Sequence record: NC_100372.1
Direction: 5' to 3' (one strand)
DNA from: a phage
DNA: 64,000 bases
Shown: positions 8,690-51,785 of the stretch, one piece after another
Position numbering within the stretch: the first letter of the stretch is position 1
Layout: every line of letters starts with the position of its first letter
Made by a program: the position numbers and the translations under genes
The notes under the pieces: model-generated
Databases searched by the model: none
What the model was told of the DNA's origin: nothing
What the model saw: the letters and a program-made list of their open reading frames with translations, nothing else

Positions 8690-9821
8690 AGAATATCCGC
8701 TTATTGAGTCCATAGATTGTCTAGCTGATCTTCTTGAACCTGACGCTATAGTTTATTATGACTTCGATCAGGTTGCATACCAAGCTGCAGCAAGCTGTGA
8801 AAAAAGGACAATTGAGGTAACACATAAAGCCTCCGGACGTAAGAAGGTGTTTAAAACACGAACAGAGTTTTGGGGGAGGCAGAAGAACGCAGTTGGCGGC
8901 TGGTTAAAGGCTGAGAACACCAACCGTGAAGCTGCATGTAAAAAAGCTGGCAAGGAGTTTATTCCGTGGACACGAGAAGATTTCGATGTCTTGGATATCC
9001 AAACCCCTGATCCTGTAGAGAACTGCTTGCACACAATTAAGTGTAAAGCTAATGCAGTCCTTAACTATCTCGGTATTCCTGAAGATCGGTGCGTAGGGGT
9101 GCTTGGAGGAACAGGCAATTTCAGACTAGATCTTCCCATGCCGGAACGATATAAAGCCAACCGTAACAATACTCTTCGACCACTGTTGCTTGAAGATGCA
9201 AGACAGTATCTACAAAAGCAATATAACGCTCAAGTGATCAACGGTATTGAAGCTGACGACTGGTTAGCTATCCAGCAATTTGAAGGTTGGAACCACTACC
9301 AGAAAACAGGAAAGTTCAACAAGTTTATTATCTCTATAGATAAGGACCAGCGAACACTTCCTGGGCTTGTATTCGATCCGATGAGGAACGATAAAGGTGA
9401 TTTTGTAAGAGAGACACCTATGCTCATTGATAACGGTATGGGTAACATATTCATGAAACCAAACGGCGATGTTGGTGGGTATGGAATGTTGTTCTTCGGT
9501 TATCAAATGCTGTGTGGTGACTCGGCTGACAATATTAAGCCTTACCAAGGGCTTATTGGTAAAGGAAAGTTTGGAGATGCATCTGCATTCTCCTTACTGT
9601 CTCAGTGCAGCACACCGAAAGAGATGTGGTTAGCAATTATTGATCAGTATAAAAAATGGTTTCCGAAAGGTGCCGTTAAGTATACTGATTTCAATGGTAT
9701 CGACCGTAGGATTTCCGTAGGCCAGTGGATGAGTATAATTTTTGACTGTTTGTATATGAAGCGAACATTCAATGATCAAACAAAACTTGTTAACGTTCTT
9801 AGAAATGTTGGAGCAATTTGA
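8682..9821 (+). CDS. Flap endonuclease / 5'-3' exonuclease (FEN, RNase H-like)
   Basis: FEN signature NGIEADDWLAI and helix-hairpin-helix region CGDSADNIKPYQGLIGKGK; 379 aa. Confidence 0.7.
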   Translation: MSREYPLIESIDCLADLLEPDAIVYYDFDQVAYQAAASCEKRTIEVTHKASGRKKVFKTRTEFWGRQKNAVGGWLKAENTNREAACKKAGKEFIPWTREDFDVLDIQTPDPVENCLHTIKCKANAVLNYLGIPEDRCVGVLGGTGNFRLDLPMPERYKANRNNTLRPLLLEDARQYLQKQYNAQVINGIEADDWLAIQQFEGWNHYQKTGKFNKFIISIDKDQRTLPGLVFDPMRNDKGDFVRETPMLIDNGMGNIFMKPNGDVGGYGMLFFGYQMLCGDSADNIKPYQGLIGKGKFGDASAFSLLSQCSTPKEMWLAIIDQYKKWFPKGAVKYTDFNGIDRRISVGQWMSIIFDCLYMKRTFNDQTKLVNVLRNVGAI

Positions 9822-10144
9822 TGACTAAAAATTCTGTAGATAATGCAATTATGGAAGCTGTTTTTGAGGATGATCATACAACAGGGACCCTTAAAACAAA
9901 AAATACATTTATTGTTGCTACAGGTATGTGGCGGTTGTATGAAGATGACACTATTGCATACATCCTGTATACTGATGATTACGCAGATGATCGTGTATGG
10001 TCTGCTGTTTTAAAAGAAGATTGCGAGCTGATTGAGGGCGAGCGGTTATGCATGTTTACCAGCGTGGAAACAGACGTTAAGCTTTGCTCTCTTGTGCTAT
10101 TCAAAGACAAAGCTTATTCTCCAGATGAAGAGGAAACAGCATGA
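9818..10144 (+). CDS. Hypothetical protein
   Basis: 108-aa acidic ORF, translationally coupled on both sides. Confidence 0.4.
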   Translation: MMTKNSVDNAIMEAVFEDDHTTGTLKTKNTFIVATGMWRLYEDDTIAYILYTDDYADDRVWSAVLKEDCELIEGERLCMFTSVETDVKLCSLVLFKDKAYSPDEEETA

Positions 10145-10770
10145 GAGAAAGACTGCTGTCTATAGACCAGTCTCTTACCCACACAGCCTGTGTTGTATGG
10201 GACGATGGTAAGCCTGTTCATAAGATTGTGTTACGCACACAAAGCTCATCTGCAAAAGAGAAGAAACCAGGGACGGTTTCTTTTGCAACAGCTGCTGAGC
10301 GTATTGACTGGATCTGCAAACAGGTTAGATATTATATCCACACGCACGGAGTCGATACTGTGGTTATGGAAGGGCTTTCCTTTGGATCGCGAGGTGATGC
10401 CACACGTGAGCTGGCTGGGTTGTTTTACGGTCTTGAAGTTATGCTTTGGGATGCTTTAGCAGATTGTGAAAATGACGGCCTGTTTAAGGTTCACACAGTG
10501 ACACCAACAACTGCCAAAAAGTTTGCTCGTAGTCATCTTCCTGAAGAACTTGCTTTTGAGGAGAAGAAAAAGCTTGACAAAAGGACAGGTAAAGAGCATA
10601 CTGTGAAGAAACCTGTTACGATGGATAAAAAGTTGATGGTTAAGGCCTGCGAAGTATCTGAACCCGGGTTCCTGGATGGGATCAACTTGGTACAAGGTAA
10701 GGCCGATCTCGCAGATGCTTATTGGATAGGCAGGGCGCATCTGGAGGGATTATCGCAAAGCGTAAAATAA
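10141..10770 (+). CDS. Putative RNase H-fold nuclease (RuvC/YqgF-like)
   Basis: N-terminal LLSIDQSLTHTACVVW (Asp-containing strand), later VVMEGLSFGS and DLADAYWIGRAH; tentative. Confidence 0.4.
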   Translation: MRERLLSIDQSLTHTACVVWDDGKPVHKIVLRTQSSSAKEKKPGTVSFATAAERIDWICKQVRYYIHTHGVDTVVMEGLSFGSRGDATRELAGLFYGLEVMLWDALADCENDGLFKVHTVTPTTAKKFARSHLPEELAFEEKKKLDKRTGKEHTVKKPVTMDKKLMVKACEVSEPGFLDGINLVQGKADLADAYWIGRAHLEGLSQSVK

Positions 10771-11327
10771 GAAAGAAAGCTGTCAAAGCCCCCGTTCATA
10801 GCGGGTGGCTAAAAGATTCTAAGGACATAGCTAACTTTCGGAAAGAATTGTCAGAAGAGCAGGATGGTCTTGATCCGATCTTGTGCGAACCACTTCGTAA
10901 GCCTTGTTTAGATCATGATCATCTGACTGGTCGTTGCAGGGGTGTTTTGTCCCAATGCACTAATACCTTTGAGGGGTATGTGCTTAAATACTGGATGAAA
11001 TACTGTAACGAGTATACAGATTGCAGTTTATCAGAGGCGTTACGCCGGATGGCTGACTATCTGGAGAAAGACTACAGCGACTTCCCGCTCCACAAAAACT
11101 ACAGAGATGATATGACAAAGTTCTTGAGGAGATGCTCTAAAGCTACGATTATTGCACGTGCAGAATCAGATCTCGGTCTTGTCATTAATTCAGAGTATAC
11201 CAAGCATGAGGCTATTGAGGCCTACATGCAGGAGTTTATAAAGAAAACTGAGGAGAGAGATTTCTATGGGGACGAAAAAGGTATTCAATCCTTGCGATTC
11301 AGTTCTGATCAGGATGAAATACCGTAA
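10722..11327 (+). CDS. Endonuclease VII-like junction-resolving enzyme (T4 gp49-like)
   Basis: CLDHDHLTGRCRGVLSQCTNTFEG and YLEKDYSD match the recalled T4 endo VII segments HLDHDH...GKVRGLLCNLCN...YLKSDY. Confidence 0.7.
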   Translation: MDRQGASGGIIAKRKIRKKAVKAPVHSGWLKDSKDIANFRKELSEEQDGLDPILCEPLRKPCLDHDHLTGRCRGVLSQCTNTFEGYVLKYWMKYCNEYTDCSLSEALRRMADYLEKDYSDFPLHKNYRDDMTKFLRRCSKATIIARAESDLGLVINSEYTKHEAIEAYMQEFIKKTEERDFYGDEKGIQSLRFSSDQDEIP

Positions 11328-38890: not shown

Positions 38891-40355
38891 CACACAAGTC
38901 TGCTTTGCAGGTTTAGCTGCTCAGCTAAGGTTCTGGAGTCACCTATAACATCTTCCAACTAAATTTCCTACCAACACAGTTACTTACCCACCACACATGA
39001 CTGTTTGCTTGTTTAGTGAGCAGTCATCCCTTGACATTCTTGCCTATCTTGATAAAATTAAGTTCTTCTCTTTTCTTTTACCGAGTAATTCGGGTTTTCT
39101 GTTCTCTTCGGTTTGAAGGGGTATGGAGATACACCTGAGTGAACAGGGTGAACAACCGAACCTTTAGCTATGGCATTAGCATGGCGAAGCGGACGGGTGA
39201 CGAAAGAGGGGCCGGAGGACACCAGTCACTGCCATATAGTATATGGGTGATAACCTGAAGAGTCTGAATAAGTGTTTAAGTACCAGTCAGAGGAAAAGGT
39301 GAATGGTAGCCGAAGGGGGAGGGGGGTTTCTTATATCTTTAATTTGTATACTTTATATACACTTGTAAACCAATTCAATTAGGATCTGTTTACCACACAA
39401 AGTGGATGGAGACAAATATCACCTATTAAACTTGAATTATTTATAGAAAATACCACAACACCGCTTAAGTCTTTGATTTTACACACAAATCTTACAAATA
39501 TCCTACCTCCATATTTAACATACTTGTAACATATTCCATATCCTACCTGCCTGATCAATTTACTCCCACCACATTCCCACATTTTCCCTGTCTGTACTAC
39601 CCCACCCCCGCCGGGAGTCCCGTCATATCTGGCTTTCCAGCAAATATCACACCCACAAATATCATCACCTGAAGAGGGTTTCATCCCATAATACCTGCCT
39701 TACCTGAAGAGCGCTTCATACACCACCTAAATTTTTTAATTGACCCCTCCCCGCCGCCGGAGAGGTTGGCTTTTCCCACACAGGCCTGAAGAGTCAGCCA
39801 GAAATATCTGAACAGGTCCAGTTATGCCCCGATTTTGTGCTTGTCCTACAGGAGTGCTGCCCTGTCAGGAGCCGGTAGCGACTGGAGTGCTGCCAGGCGG
39901 ACGGAATGGGAATACTTCTCATTTTTATAATAATTCTCAAATATCGAGGCAGTGAGGCAAATTAATAGGCCAGGCCGTTCACACAGTGGCACAACATTTG
40001 CAATCTATCTTGTGGGAGTGAATGAGAATACCTATCATTGTGAGAATGGTTATCATTACGGGCAATTTAACATAATACCTATTATGCGCACCACTGGCGA
40101 TACATACAGGGATTGATAACATGGGTTACTGTTTACGCACATAACAATTATATTTATTACTATTTGTGTGGGATATAGTTAGCAACCAATAGATTAGATA
40201 TTGACCTGCAGACTTCTGACCGTCCAGACGTCTAAACGCCCACACAACAAGGATTATACATACATTCCTGAATGTAAACAGGGCCGCAAAAAATGCTACC
40301 ATACCAGTTTGTAAATTTTTCATGCAGCACTTGACAAAGAGGAGAAAAACTTGTC

Positions 40356-42569: not shown

Positions 42570-42842
42570 TTACTTACGGCGGCAGAATTCAAGCGTTTTT
42601 AATTGATAATCTTCCTCAGCCTGAAGTACAACCGCCTCGATCATTTCGTTGGCATTGTTGAAGCCATACCCTTTAGCGAACTCGTCCGCACCACCTTCGT
42701 GATCATGTTCTGCGTTCATCGCTTCCACGAAATGGAATTCAAGATTATTGAGATAAGGGCTTGATGTTCCGTCCTCTTTTTCGATGAGATCCCAAATAGT
42801 ATTAAAACGTGATTCGACTTCTTGGTTAATCCAGCTTAACAT
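42570..42842 (-). CDS. Hypothetical acidic protein
   Basis: 90-aa ORF. Confidence 0.4.
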   Translation of the reverse strand: MLSWINQEVESRFNTIWDLIEKEDGTSSPYLNNLEFHFVEAMNAEHDHEGGADEFAKGYGFNNANEMIEAVVLQAEEDYQLKTLEFCRRK

Positions 42843-43054
42843 GGCGTTTTCCTCTCTTCTGGTTGTTGTGTGGGCACTTTTGCCCCTTCAAGATAAATGT
42901 TACCCCACCGCCTGGCAGGTGTCAACGGTTTTTATAGTTTTTTATATGACAGGCACCCCCGGTGATTGTCTCCCCCCGTCGCCAGGTGCCTGCCGTGAAA
43001 CAAGTATAACAAAAAACAGGACCATTACAAGCCCTGTTTTATGGTTTATAAAGA

Positions 43055-50181: not shown

Positions 50182-50264
50182 GATTTTTATCCTCTCTGTT
50201 AATTAGTGTGGTGTTGTTCACCTTGCGAGGATAAGAATAACAGAACTATCCGAGCTGTCAACCA

Positions 50265-50438
50265 TTAGTTAGAATTATTTTTTGGGCAGAATTCTCCAGC
50301 CGCCGCCCCTGCCAGGTTAACCATCATTTTTTCGTACTCTTCTTTATGTTCCAACGCTCCCGCCATAGCCTTTTCAACCAGGGCGATAGCCTCAGCGTCA
50401 TTAATCGCTACATTTCCAGGGATCCTATTACCTTTCAT
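50265..50438 (-). CDS. Hypothetical 57-aa protein (MKGNRIPGNVAINDAEAIALVEKAMAGALEHKEEYEKMMVNLAGAAAGEFCPKNNSN)
   Basis: AGGAGG RBS 7 nt upstream of the ATG (minus strand); first gene downstream of the 50.4-51.5 kb ORF-free region; below the ORF-track threshold. Confidence 0.4.
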   Translation of the reverse strand: MKGNRIPGNVAINDAEAIALVEKAMAGALEHKEEYEKMMVNLAGAAAGEFCPKNNSN

Positions 50439-50652
50439 TTTTGTACCTCCTCTTCAATTGTTACCTGCCCTGTAGCATAGGCCTACCAGGTTTGCAAGCT
50501 TTCACTCTCTCCTACCTGGTCAGTCAGGTCCTGCCAGGCTGGCCCCGCCAGGTTGCAGCGGTTGGTGTATTATGTTAGAAAAAATTTTTGAAGAAGTGTT
50601 GACAGCGGCCCCGCCAGGTGGCACAATATACCTATCGAAAGGACGGCAGGCA

Positions 50653-50845
50653 CCGGTGACGGGGGAGACAACCACCGGGGATGGGCGCTGCATAAAATGA
50701 GAACGGTTATCATTATCATTTAAAAATTTATGCAAAAAATCCTTGCTTTCTTTGTCCTGTGTGATACTATAATAACAAGCCGGGGCAACAGGGGCCGGGA
50801 GACAATCACCGGGGGTGCCCGTTATTCTGCAAACGAGAATGATTA
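50653..50845. repeat. Two copies of a roughly 60-bp composite element: GGGAGACAAYCACCGGGGRTG, about 15 nt, GAGAAYGRTTATCATT, then an A/T-rich tail
   Basis: Copy 1 at 50653-50710 (gggagacaaccaccggggatgg ... gagaacggttatcatt), copy 2 at 50787-50845 (gggagacaatcaccgggggtgc ... gagaatgattatcatt). Confidence 0.75.
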
Positions 50846-50980
50846 TCATTCAAAATTCTAAATGAGAACTTTTCGCATTTCATAAATTTAGTTAGCATGC
50901 TAATTACCTACCGTGACAATTCTATATAAAATAATACCTCCTTAAATATTTCCATATACAAATTTTAAAAATCCATTTCC

Positions 50981-51150
50981 GAAAACGAAAAATCGATTTC
51001 GTCCCCAAAAATTTCAGGTCGAGCTCCGGAACGATTTCCAGAAAATCTGATTCAGAAAACGAAAAACAGATCGAGTACTAAGAAATTTATCGAGAAAAAT
51101 TTTCAGAAAATTCAATCTTTGAAACGAAAAACAGATCGAGTACTGAGAGA
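50981..51150. repeat. Imperfect tandem direct repeats, about 66-74 bp period, core GAAAACGAAAAA(C/T)(A/C)GAT(C/T)
   Basis: gaaaacgaaaaatcgatttcg 50981, gaaaacgaaaaacagatcgagtact 51055, gaaacgaaaaacagatcgagtact 51121; ATCCATTT(T/C) also recurs at 50971, 51324, 51341 and 51396. Confidence 0.75.
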
Positions 51151-51386
51151 GATGTATCAAAACCTGCTGAGAATAATGGGTTTATTGTTATAAAGGGTCA
51201 AAGGTAAGCTGGGAAAGTTCCGGTAGAAGGGTGAGAGTATGTGCGGAAAATCTGGAATAGTAACTTAAAGTACGGTGCGAACGATAGAATGAGCAGCACA
51301 TCTTATCGCGCCTGTCTTGAAAAATCCATTTTAGTTTTCGATCCATTTTCTGATTTTCTAAGAATTTTAAAATATCCGGCTAGGTA

Positions 51387-51417
51387 AAATATCAAAAGGA
51401 GGAAATCCATTTTAGAA
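51387..51417 (-). terminator. Candidate terminator for minus-strand transcription entering the ORF-free region
   Basis: aaggagga-N15-tcctcctt; on the minus strand followed by ttgatatttta; large loop lowers confidence. Confidence 0.4.
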
Positions 51418-51455
51418 ATCCTCCTTATACTTGATGTGCCAGGGATTTTCAAGTA

Positions 51456-51785
51456 TCAACTGTCTTTGTTTTTAGGCTTGTGCATACGTAGAGGTATGGT
51501 CTTTATAACATTCCATCTGCCCAACCCCTCCCAGTTCCAATTGTGAGCGTGATACCCAGTTATGCATGCACTGCTGGCGTGATCATAAGCATAAGAGAAC
51601 GCTATGCGAACCAGGTGGGGCCAGTCCCTCCACGGCTGTGGACCGTAAGCCTTTCTCCAACACCGACACAAACTAATTGTCTCAAGAATAGGTAGAATAA
51701 CAAATCCATATACCGCCACCAAAATGGTAAGAGCAATGATTGTCAGGAATACATACCCTGCAGTTGAAATAATGATCTCTGTCAT
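51456..51785 (-). CDS. Membrane protein
   Basis: Hydrophobic N-terminal half (IISTAGYVFLTIIALTILVAVYGFVILPIL); 109 aa. Confidence 0.4.
   Translation of the reverse strand: MTEIIISTAGYVFLTIIALTILVAVYGFVILPILETISLCRCWRKAYGPQPWRDWPHLVRIAFSYAYDHASSACITGYHAHNWNWEGLGRWNVIKTIPLRMHKPKNKDS

Follow-up and report, generated by a model that had tools for sequence, protein, structure and literature searches.

Candidate Fur operators and a promoter-hairpin unit in a conserved untranslated region of an rV5-like coliphage

Within the 64,000 nucleotides of phage DNA analysed here (record NC_100372.1; this whole stretch is called the window), the minus-strand genes 50265-50438 and 51456-51785 bound a region, 50440-51455, that had been described from its sequence as free of credible genes and as sharing a short motif with a first non-coding region of the window. 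The question raised by this locus is what such an untranslated region does within a block of early genes, and which factor could act on both regions. The source phage is an rV5-like Escherichia coli myovirus of the genus Vequintavirus, whose closest matches are 97-98% identical (97.6% identity with phage ECP2303 over 50200-51700), and the rV5 paper marks only the other (first) region, at 104013-106618, as non-coding. The answer that we favour, tentatively and with a little less than even confidence, is that 50440-51455 is a conserved untranslated locus of the plus strand, in which the host regulator Fur would control non-coding transcription in an iron-dependent manner.

The absence of a credible ORF from 50440-51455 was borne out by comparison of relatives. 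A mechanical ORF of 109 aa on the minus strand (50520-50849) lacks a Shine-Dalgarno sequence and covers both of the GC-rich hairpins described below; in an alignment of 11 genomes, two kinds of change disrupt its frame, a 1-nt indel in Phage 203 and differences in homopolymer length that are not divisible by 3. Between 51130 and 51330, the variable columns are distributed over the three phases as 35/34/30, that is, without codon periodicity. It is highly improbable that the region encodes small proteins, be it this ORF, the 43-aa and 48-aa ORFs of the plus strand or others annotated in relatives. Several GenBank records do call ORFs there, the 109-aa ORF being hypothetical in some and other small ORFs being called in others, but these annotations conflict in strand and position, ribosome-binding sites are lacking and the nucleotide conservation exceeds that of real genes; the 109-aa, 43-aa and 48-aa ORFs were rejected because of the indels, the missing codon phase and the discordant annotations. 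Column identity among the 11 genomes reaches 96-99% in 50600-51110 and about 99% in 51320-51380, compared with 78-90% in the flanking genes. Of the 222 phage records matched by the non-coding core, 113 align with at least 80% of the core. In Certrevirus, Seunavirus, Mydovirus, Henunavirus and Phapecoctavirus as well as in the Stephanstirmvirinae phage anhysbys, the corresponding position has a gap of like architecture, 800-960 bp long. The region 50440-51455 is thus non-coding and strongly constrained. Neither a scan of the whole window at the Rfam gathering level nor E-value scans of 50440-51455 and three relatives gave a meaningful hit, and ARAGORN detected no tRNA in the window or in relatives.

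The 16-17 bp motif reported to be common to both non-coding regions, GAGAAYRRTTATCATT, is indeed present in both, with exact copies at 50699, 50835 and 40042-40057 (the last shifted by one position from the coordinate given before) and a degenerate copy at 40024-40039. Four matches were found against 0.54 expected, a number reached by one of 100 shuffles. This motif is part of a 19-bp palindrome, AATGAGAAT-N-ATT(C/A)TCATT, which, in a scan of the window and of the rest of the 97.6%-identical genome (roughly 136 kb), occurs only in the two non-coding regions, at 39905, 40021, 40039, 50696, 50832 and 50861. In the region under study, these sites, to which no strand is assigned, are O1 (50696-50718; AATGAGAACGGTTATCATT with a second, overlapping 7-1-7 site, CGGTTATCATTATCA, at an offset of 6 bp), which matches GATAATGATWATCATTATC at 16 of 19 positions, O2 (50832-50850; AACGAGAATGATTATCATT) and the degenerate O3 (50861-50879; AATGAGAACTTTTCGCATT), located exactly 29 bp past O2. 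The first region carries a site at 39905-39923, a 7-1-7 site at 39925-39939, O4 (40021-40039) and O5 (40039-40057). In the other genera, the equivalent is a perfect inverted repeat, AATGAGAA-N3-TTCTCATT, which corresponds to the 7-1-7 form TGAGAAT-N-ATTCTCA; perfect 8-3-8 or 7-1-7 palindromes are present in PVP-SE1, GAP31 and CR3. Exact arrays of 29-bp period comprise four copies in anhysbys, three in CR3 and CB7 and two in GAP31, Ro1 and the window, so that the period is found in five relatives, to which a further viral locus (L054) can be added. These arrays do not have the layout of CRISPR loci (repeats of 24-40 bp with similar spacers), as the 29-bp period leaves 8-10 bp between the palindromes.

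Comparison of the first-region sites in four genomes revealed invariant half-sites around a variable central 3 bp (the centre of O5 being TGG, TAG, TCG or CCA). Variant half-sites (TTATCA, GCGAA) are not accompanied by compensation on the opposite arm, which argues against an RNA stem. The invariance of the half-sites, the variability of the centre and the confinement to two non-coding regions point to a dimeric DNA-binding protein, and the preliminary proposal of a common DNA-binding factor acting at both loci is, on these sequence criteria, well supported. A second motif common to both regions is AAATATC, of which the window has 29 copies against 13 expected, six of them on the plus strand within 39414-39945 and two within 51370-51393; it may represent a second shared binding site.

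Which protein could recognise the palindromes is suggested by the operators of E. coli iron genes. The ryhB operator AATGAGAATGATTATTATT is identical at 18 of 19 positions to AATGAGAATGATTATCATT, the commonest (consensus) site of the related genera, the fhuA operator and O2 have the 16-mer AAACGAGAATGATTAT in common, and fepB carries AATGCTTCTCATT. Counted against the 7-1-7 consensus TGATAATNATTATCA, O2, O5 and the site at 39925 have 2 mismatches and O1 and O4 have 3, compared with 1 for entC and 3 for each of fhuA, fepA and fepD-entS, so that the phage sites are equal to or better than the last three and match GATAATGATWATCATTATC or TGATAATNATTATCA at the level of proven sites. In addition, the two 7-1-7 sites of O1, offset by 6 bp, form the classical Fur arrangement, and O2 is among the two best of 63,982 19-mers when scored against five host Fur-regulated regions. 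Each of the statistics is moderate when taken singly; what is compelling is the convergence of independent host operators on sites that had been flagged previously on other grounds. The phage sites thus resemble the ryhB, fhuA, fepB and entC operators by their near-identical sequence, their GAGAA half-site, their palindromic 7-1-7 geometry and the overlapping sites of O1. They differ from them by their occurrence in a virulent genome, by their position downstream of promoter-hairpin units rather than clearly over -10 and -35 elements and, in relatives, by their 29-bp-period arrays, Fur binding being a prediction in the phage. As the motif is common to unrelated families of virulent enterobacterial phages (see below), a host factor is the more parsimonious binder, and host Fur is the best candidate, most probably the protein that binds the palindromes. 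No report of Fur boxes in lytic phages or in T5 terminal repeats was found in the literature searched, in which nothing relevant was found on Vequintavirinae transcriptomes either. On this reading, a virulent myovirus joins host Fur-type operators and a repeat region like RR3 of T5, both of a known kind, to an undescribed promoter-hairpin unit.

The two composite elements of about 60 bp noted previously in 50440-51455 were confirmed, the families D4, D5 and D6 being spaced by 134-136 nt. As judged from its sequence, each element is a σ70 promoter followed by a GC-rich hairpin, whose core is GGAGACAAYCACCGG, and then by a Fur-like box. The core GGGAGACAAYCACCGGGG is present in three copies against 0.03 expected, the third of which (42957-42974, minus strand) had been missed. 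The first promoter, P1 (50599-50627, plus strand), consists of TTGACA, a 17-nt spacer and (TG)CACAAT and scores 10/12 with the TG in the promoter scanner; its hexamers are kept in the 11 genomes and the variants of its -10 element shift towards the consensus (CATAAT, CAAAAT). The second, P2 (50743-50773, plus strand), consists of TTGCTT, a 19-nt spacer and TATAAT, and is invariant in the 11 genomes. At the position of P2, the other genera display TTGCAA-17-TATATT, TTGATC-16-TATTAT, TTGACC-17-GATAAT or TTGCTT-16-TATTCT with unrelated spacers; the retention of good hexamers while the spacers diverge is the signature of a real promoter. GC-rich spacers with GGCCC or CCWGG (Dcm-type) sequences, as in TTGACA-GCGGCCCCGCCAGGTGG-CACAAT, are typical of the σ70-like promoters of this group and were observed in the window at 50599-50627, 42897-42925 and 39741-39775, and also at three other viral loci (L025, L027 and L028).

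The hairpins behind these promoters are c1 (50646-50691, plus strand; core GGGAGACAACCACCGGGG at 50663-50680), with a folding energy of -20.1 kcal/mol, a z-score of -2.7 and 98-99% conservation, and c2 (50783-50820, plus strand; core GGGAGACAATCACCGGGG at 50797-50814), which belongs to a block conserved across genera. The third copy, c3 (42948-42994, minus strand; -24.6 kcal/mol, z-score -3.4), has no Fur-like box and is preceded by its own promoter, TTGTAA-16-TATACT (43030 to 43003). It is located between a weak terminator and the promoter (42925 to 42897) of the gene 42570-42842 (minus strand). The hairpin is a long imperfect stem in which the loop and the 3' arm are conserved in sequence (GGAGACAAWCACCGGGG-N-TGCC) and the 5' arm varies while keeping its pairing. 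One pair of the outer stem is thus G-C in CR3, G.U in CB7 and A-U in Hena1, and c3 of ECP2303 (ACGGGCGG/CCUGCCUGU) keeps the stem through two G.U pairs that would be A.C mismatches on the other strand. Since such G.U pairs are valid only in the GAGACAA orientation, they count in favour of an RNA of the plus-strand type, and in 13 of the 19 hairpin copies the better fold is that of the sense rather than the antisense strand.

An unrelated viral contig (IMGVR_UViG_3300027123_000194, L010) carries four copies of the hairpin, each arranged as TGnTATAAT, about 22 nt, core and T-run and lying in either orientation relative to the neighbouring genes, so that they read like stand-alone small-RNA genes; PHROG gave no match for the ORFs adjoining them. 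The same hairpin core, behind strong promoters and without Fur-like boxes, was seen in the unclassified viral contigs L009, L010 and L040 (contigs of 47 kb and 168 kb among them), T-run terminators being restricted to the L009 and L010 copies. Promoters are present, a few compensatory or G.U changes were seen by eye, and a T-run terminator is seen in L009 and L010 only; the hairpin half of the composite element is probably a promoter-driven small RNA family. It would be a new one, as several phage families have it and Rfam does not. Inspection by eye revealed neither a convincing similarity or complementarity of the hairpin to RyhB nor a resemblance to the type I-E or I-F CRISPR repeats of E. 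coli. The alternative offered in the preliminary description, a family of small RNAs acting at both loci, holds as far as the existence of a probable small RNA family is concerned. The part that does not hold is the link between the loci: the hairpin does not occur in the first non-coding region and its third copy, at 42.9 kb, has no box, so that the operator and AAATATC, and not the RNA, connect the two regions.

At the position of hairpin copy 1, the other genera have a different conserved GC-rich element (ACGCCACCCCACGGCGAAAAGGCGGGGCTAAC...GGTGGATCGCCGGTAGTTCG) whose covariation signal is modest, and their next promoter is preceded by direct repeats of TGTAAAGA, 11 bp apart; element 'A' of the other genera is absent from the window. 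In the Klebsiella phage record OY978796.1, a tRNA-Ile and a tRNA-Met are annotated (10891-11044) exactly over the hairpin/Fur-box unit. This annotation is probably an artefact, as neither ARAGORN nor Rfam finds a tRNA there. Annotation pipelines thus fill promoter-hairpin regions with spurious ORFs and even with tRNAs.

The distribution of the unit extends beyond the rV5-like phages. A scan of viral contigs with AATGAGAATNATTMTCATT yielded at least 120 loci, and among the matches listed are T5 (both terminal repeats), T5-like contigs of 108-121 kb and a jumbo-phage contig of 345,809 bp, the size of Klebsiella phage RaK2. Besides the other Vequintavirinae genera, the unit is present in Stephanstirmvirinae, T5-like phages and this contig of about 346 kb, where TTGACT-16-TATAAT is followed by a GC-rich hairpin with CCGGAGAC and then by AAATGAGAATCATTATCATT. 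The composite element is therefore a real module, common to several families of virulent enterobacterial phages, a distribution that favours a host factor as its ligand.

In T5 (AY587007), the palindromes correspond to the annotated 'direct repeat C' copies 1-4 and palindromes E-I (9468-9637) of Repeat Region 3 (RR3; 9194-10409), which belongs to the left terminal repeat and adjoins the 7.9% nick. RR3 was described by Davison as 1.2 kb of untranslated and extremely complicated sequence, better conserved than ORFs and likely to be the injection stop signal (iss), with a calculated shear point at 9618; DnaA boxes, and not Fur, are discussed there, and the T5 replication origins map outside RR3. 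Like RR3, the region 50440-51455 is a large untranslated stretch of repeats and palindromes that is more conserved than the neighbouring ORFs, and the direct repeat C and palindrome sequences (for instance AATGAGAATCATTATCATT) are of the same family. AAATCC-type short repeats are present in both, and T5-like contigs carry a GC-rich hairpin followed by ATTCTCAAATGAGAATCATTCTCATT, aligning with c2 and O2, together with an TTAGCAGGCTAA hairpin. By contrast, T5 has paired DnaA boxes in IRD'-spacer-IRC', 'direct repeat D' copies (GTGCAAATCCGACA) and a site-specific nick, none of which is found in the region: DnaA boxes (TTWTNCACA) are absent from 50440-51455 and number 7 in the window against 9 expected. 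RR3 is also part of a fixed terminal repeat, whereas the region lies inside the early-gene block of a genome type reported to be circularly permuted; T5-like phages match the hairpin core GGAGACAAYCACCGG only loosely, and the role of RR3 is itself a candidate one. The T5 'direct repeat A' motif TTGAGATA (AY587007 10026-10064) is absent from the window, and two to three copies of it were observed in the homologous regions of Ro1, Hena1 and anhysbys.

Beyond the boxes, the plus strand continues into AT-rich imperfect direct repeats (50968-51148) with units of about 65-74 nt, which end in GAAAACGAAAAACAGATCGAGTACT or GATCGAGTACT and are 95-99% conserved. The imperfect tandem repeats described before are real; they are weak, with spacings of 65 nt and 74 nt at 78% and 72% identity, respectively, and are not reported by TRF. 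Equivalent arrays of three 72-75-nt units after a σ70 promoter are present in the other genera. A hypervariable segment follows (51125-51335, plus strand), in which haplotypes are 69-74% identical compared with 92-99% in the flanks, and all ten haplotypes are exactly 211 nt long. The plus-strand consensus fold of this segment comprises 47 pairs with 95% of cells paired, seven compensatory pairs and many G.U pairs, and none of 500 shuffles reaches its covariation score. These values are suggestive of a structured RNA domain, and only suggestive. A sliding alifold scan of the 11-genome alignment was uninformative, the sequences being too similar.

These elements can be assembled into the following scheme, in which Fur binding, the existence of the RNAs and the gating are all read from sequence. 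Transcription of the region would proceed mainly along the plus strand, in the direction opposite to that of the early genes around it. Host RNA polymerase starting at P1 and P2 would produce the short GC-rich hairpin RNAs c1 and c2, which share the core GGAGACAAYCACCGG with the third copy and might act as decoys, base-pairing regulators or cis-acting elements. The palindromes directly after each hairpin, like their counterparts in the first non-coding region, would be occupied by a dimeric protein, most probably Fur. When loaded with iron, Fur at +50 to +100 would block the read-through from P1 and P2, and it might act as a repressor of TTGAAT-18-CAGAAT, the convergent promoter-like sequence, as well. 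Transcripts in an iron-replete host would then be limited to the short hairpin RNAs, whereas in an iron-starved host transcription could continue into both the AT-rich repeats and the variable domain of 211 nt. The workhorses of phage therapy and of O157:H7 biocontrol include Vequintaviruses and T5-like phages, and the gut and the urinary tract, where infections occur, are iron-limited; if these phages sense host iron via Fur, both their efficacy and their timing would vary with the iron available.

It should be noted that a number of observations weigh against this scheme. The boxes are situated 50-100 nt downstream of P1 and P2 and not over them, they overlap only weak minus-strand promoter-like sequences, and an architecture of Fur roadblocks in arrays of 29-bp period is not established. 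Two of the sites (O3 and O4) are degenerate, O2 is equalled by an unrelated 19-mer in its score against the host Fur regions, and a match of at least 16 positions arises in 8 of 200 Markov shuffles (p about 0.04), which alone is only modest. The 19-nt spacer of P2 is suboptimal and P2 is omitted by the promoter scanner. As to the RNAs, c2 is no more stable than shuffled sequences (z-score +0.86), none of the three window copies (c1, c2 and c3) is followed by an intrinsic terminator, and the apical register differs between hairpin copies. RNAalifold applied to a plain MAFFT alignment of the 19 copies returned no consensus structure, the 5' arms being too divergent to align, and the conservation of loop and 3' arm as sequence also fits a DNA site. 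Finally, the fold of the 211-nt segment was derived from the same eight sequences that support it, and its single-sequence minimum free energy has a z-score of only -0.77.

Two other explanations, each of which we consider unlikely though well worth weighing, concern the protein that reads the palindromes and the level, DNA or RNA, at which the region acts. The palindromes could be operators of a phage-encoded early regulator, their resemblance to Fur boxes being convergence among AT-rich palindromes. Every copy in the window does have GAGAA and not the textbook GATAA, the strict 29-bp arrays recall multipartite phage operators, and the sites are limited to regulatory regions; GAGAA, however, occurs in the genuine host operators of ryhB, fhuA and fepB, one common regulator would be needed by T5-like, rV5-like and phi92-like phages and by the jumbo-phage contig, and no candidate protein was found among the neighbouring ORFs, for which PHROG and Pfam returned unknown families, an HNH endonuclease or DUF7170 and no functional lead. 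Of comparable probability is a role at the DNA level, the region being the rV5-group counterpart of RR3, serving host proteins as a site of docking or arrest while DNA enters, or a replication origin of the T7 or T4 type. The likeness to the repeat-packed RR3 and its Fur-like palindromes, the hairpin-plus-box unit and TTAGCAGGCTAA hairpin of T5-like contigs, the AAATCC-type and AAATATC iteron-like repeats and the sequence conservation of the hairpin loop and 3' arm all agree with it. Two tandem promoters followed by AT-rich repeats recall the T7 primary origin and T4 oriF and oriG, in which one or more promoters precede an AT-rich unwinding region; the skew follows the direction of transcription. 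Those origins do not, on the other hand, feature host-operator-like arrays or a signal of compensatory changes, and the G.U asymmetry and compensatory changes point to RNA. Besides, DnaA boxes are at chance level across the window, no initiator gene is adjacent, the T5 origins map elsewhere, the iss role of RR3 is unproven, and in circularly permuted genomes no fixed end enters first. A wider reading, to which we assign a low probability, is that otherwise unrelated virulent enterobacterial phages (T5-, rV5-, phi92- and RaK2-like) share a non-coding module for the docking of a host factor, with the Fur-like palindromes and the promoter-hairpin unit as its common core, where iron-loaded Fur would bind incoming or replicating DNA. 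The T5 arrays are located at the calculated shear point of the first-step-transfer DNA, so that Fur could be the missing host component of the injection stop; if true, an iron checkpoint would gate the early programme of these phages. The link with T5 makes a 40-year-old puzzle, namely what stops T5 DNA at 7.9%, directly testable.

If the RNA is what matters, the functional transcripts could still be those of the minus strand, Fur-repressed promoters driving a long structured 5' UTR for the early genes that start at 50438. This is improbable to the same degree as the docking module. The promoters would lie over O2/O3 (TTGAAT-18-CAGAAT or ATGAAA-17-TAGAAT) and over O1 (TTGCAT-18-GATAAC), with the hairpins as leader structures or as targets of convergent transcription, details that are just as doubtful. 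O2 occupies the 18-nt spacer between TTGAAT (50853 to 50848) and CAGAAT (50829 to 50824), the scanner lists a minus-strand promoter at 50883 to 50855 flanked by O3 and O2, and TTGAAT and CAGAAT are kept in most genera. The placement of a box over a promoter is that of ryhB and fhuA, and the surrounding genes are also on the minus strand. These hexamers, however, belong to a block whose conservation has other reasons, their score is only 8-9/12, TAGAAT is not kept in other genera, the G.U pairs would turn into A.C mismatches, and c3 and the L010 copies are oppositely oriented relative to their neighbouring genes. A role of the hairpins as boxB/nut-like or put-like antitermination sites, or of the repeats as an anti-defence RNA mimicking a type III antitoxin (pseudo-ToxI-like), is far less plausible still. 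The hairpins are promoter-proximal, as are the short hairpins of early transcripts in λ and P22 nut and HK022 put, and c2 can adopt an apical fold GA[GACAA]UC. GACAA is the boxB pentaloop of P22, and N proteins recognise boxB pentaloops. No boxA was seen by eye near the hairpins, however, and the pentaloop register is not conserved (a CAA triloop in CR3, a different loop in GAP31); the hairpin copies can stand alone with their own promoter and T-run, in either orientation and independently of the neighbouring genes, and no N-like protein turned up, although no search for N proteins was made. An anti-defence RNA has a precedent in the rV5-like Pectobacterium phage phiTE, whose non-coding repeat RNA defeats ToxIN; its pseudo-ToxI locus is likewise a non-coding, isolate-variable repeat locus of the same subfamily and is expressed as RNA. 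The window repeats, of 65-74 nt and imperfect (72-78% identity), are unlike the 36-nt ToxI unit, with which no sequence similarity was seen by eye, and unlike ToxI-like arrays in general (near-perfect tandem repeats of about 34-45 nt between a promoter and a terminator, with a toxin gene behind), no toxin ORF being adjacent; the homologous region of phiTE and CB7 carries the hairpin and Fur-box architecture instead.

The remaining parts of 50440-51455 are short repeats and a terminator. Upstream of the first hairpin, a cluster of GC-rich CCWGG motifs (50480-50618, plus strand) comprises GGCCTACCAGG at 50480, GGTCCTGCCAGG at 50527 and GGCCCCGCCAGG at 50541 and 50607; the two GGCCCCGCCAGG copies had been recognised before, and the one at 50607 is the spacer of P1. 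The looser CCYRCCAGGT has four copies against 0.25 expected, all within 50308-50619. A small conserved palindrome or hairpin, TTAGCATGCTAA, lies at 50891-50906 (plus strand), and TTAGCAGGCTAA is found in divergent Vequintavirinae contigs as well as in the T5-like ones. As stated in the preliminary description, ATCCATTT has four copies. All are on the plus strand, and three are ATCCATTTT and one is ATCCATTTC; the first, at 50971, is within the AT-rich repeats. With eight copies in the window against 4.45 expected, only their clustering is notable. An ultra-conserved block (51319-51393, plus strand) contains ATCCATTTT at 51324 and 51341 and AAATATC at 51370 and 51387. The minus-strand terminator proposed near 51400 was placed at 51396-51426, where a conserved hairpin, AAGGAGGA...TCCTCCTT, followed by a T-run terminates the gene 51456-51785 (minus strand) and contains the fourth ATCCATTTT copy.

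Several minor observations were made in other places. Many MG0656xx records titled 'Campylobacter phage' (some UNVERIFIED) are Vequintaviruses near-identical to coliphages, which makes the host label doubtful. In CR3, CB7 and Ro1, the homologous region has arrays of CAAATATCAC at its right end. In the first non-coding region, the segment 40374-40496 contains CTGTTTACGCC about four times at a 15-bp period and TGACACAATA twice. Near the start of the window, four tandem copies of a 21-bp palindromic unit, GTGTCCGTATCACGGACAGTA, lie at 158-243 (TRF score 103-125) and have an operator-like look.

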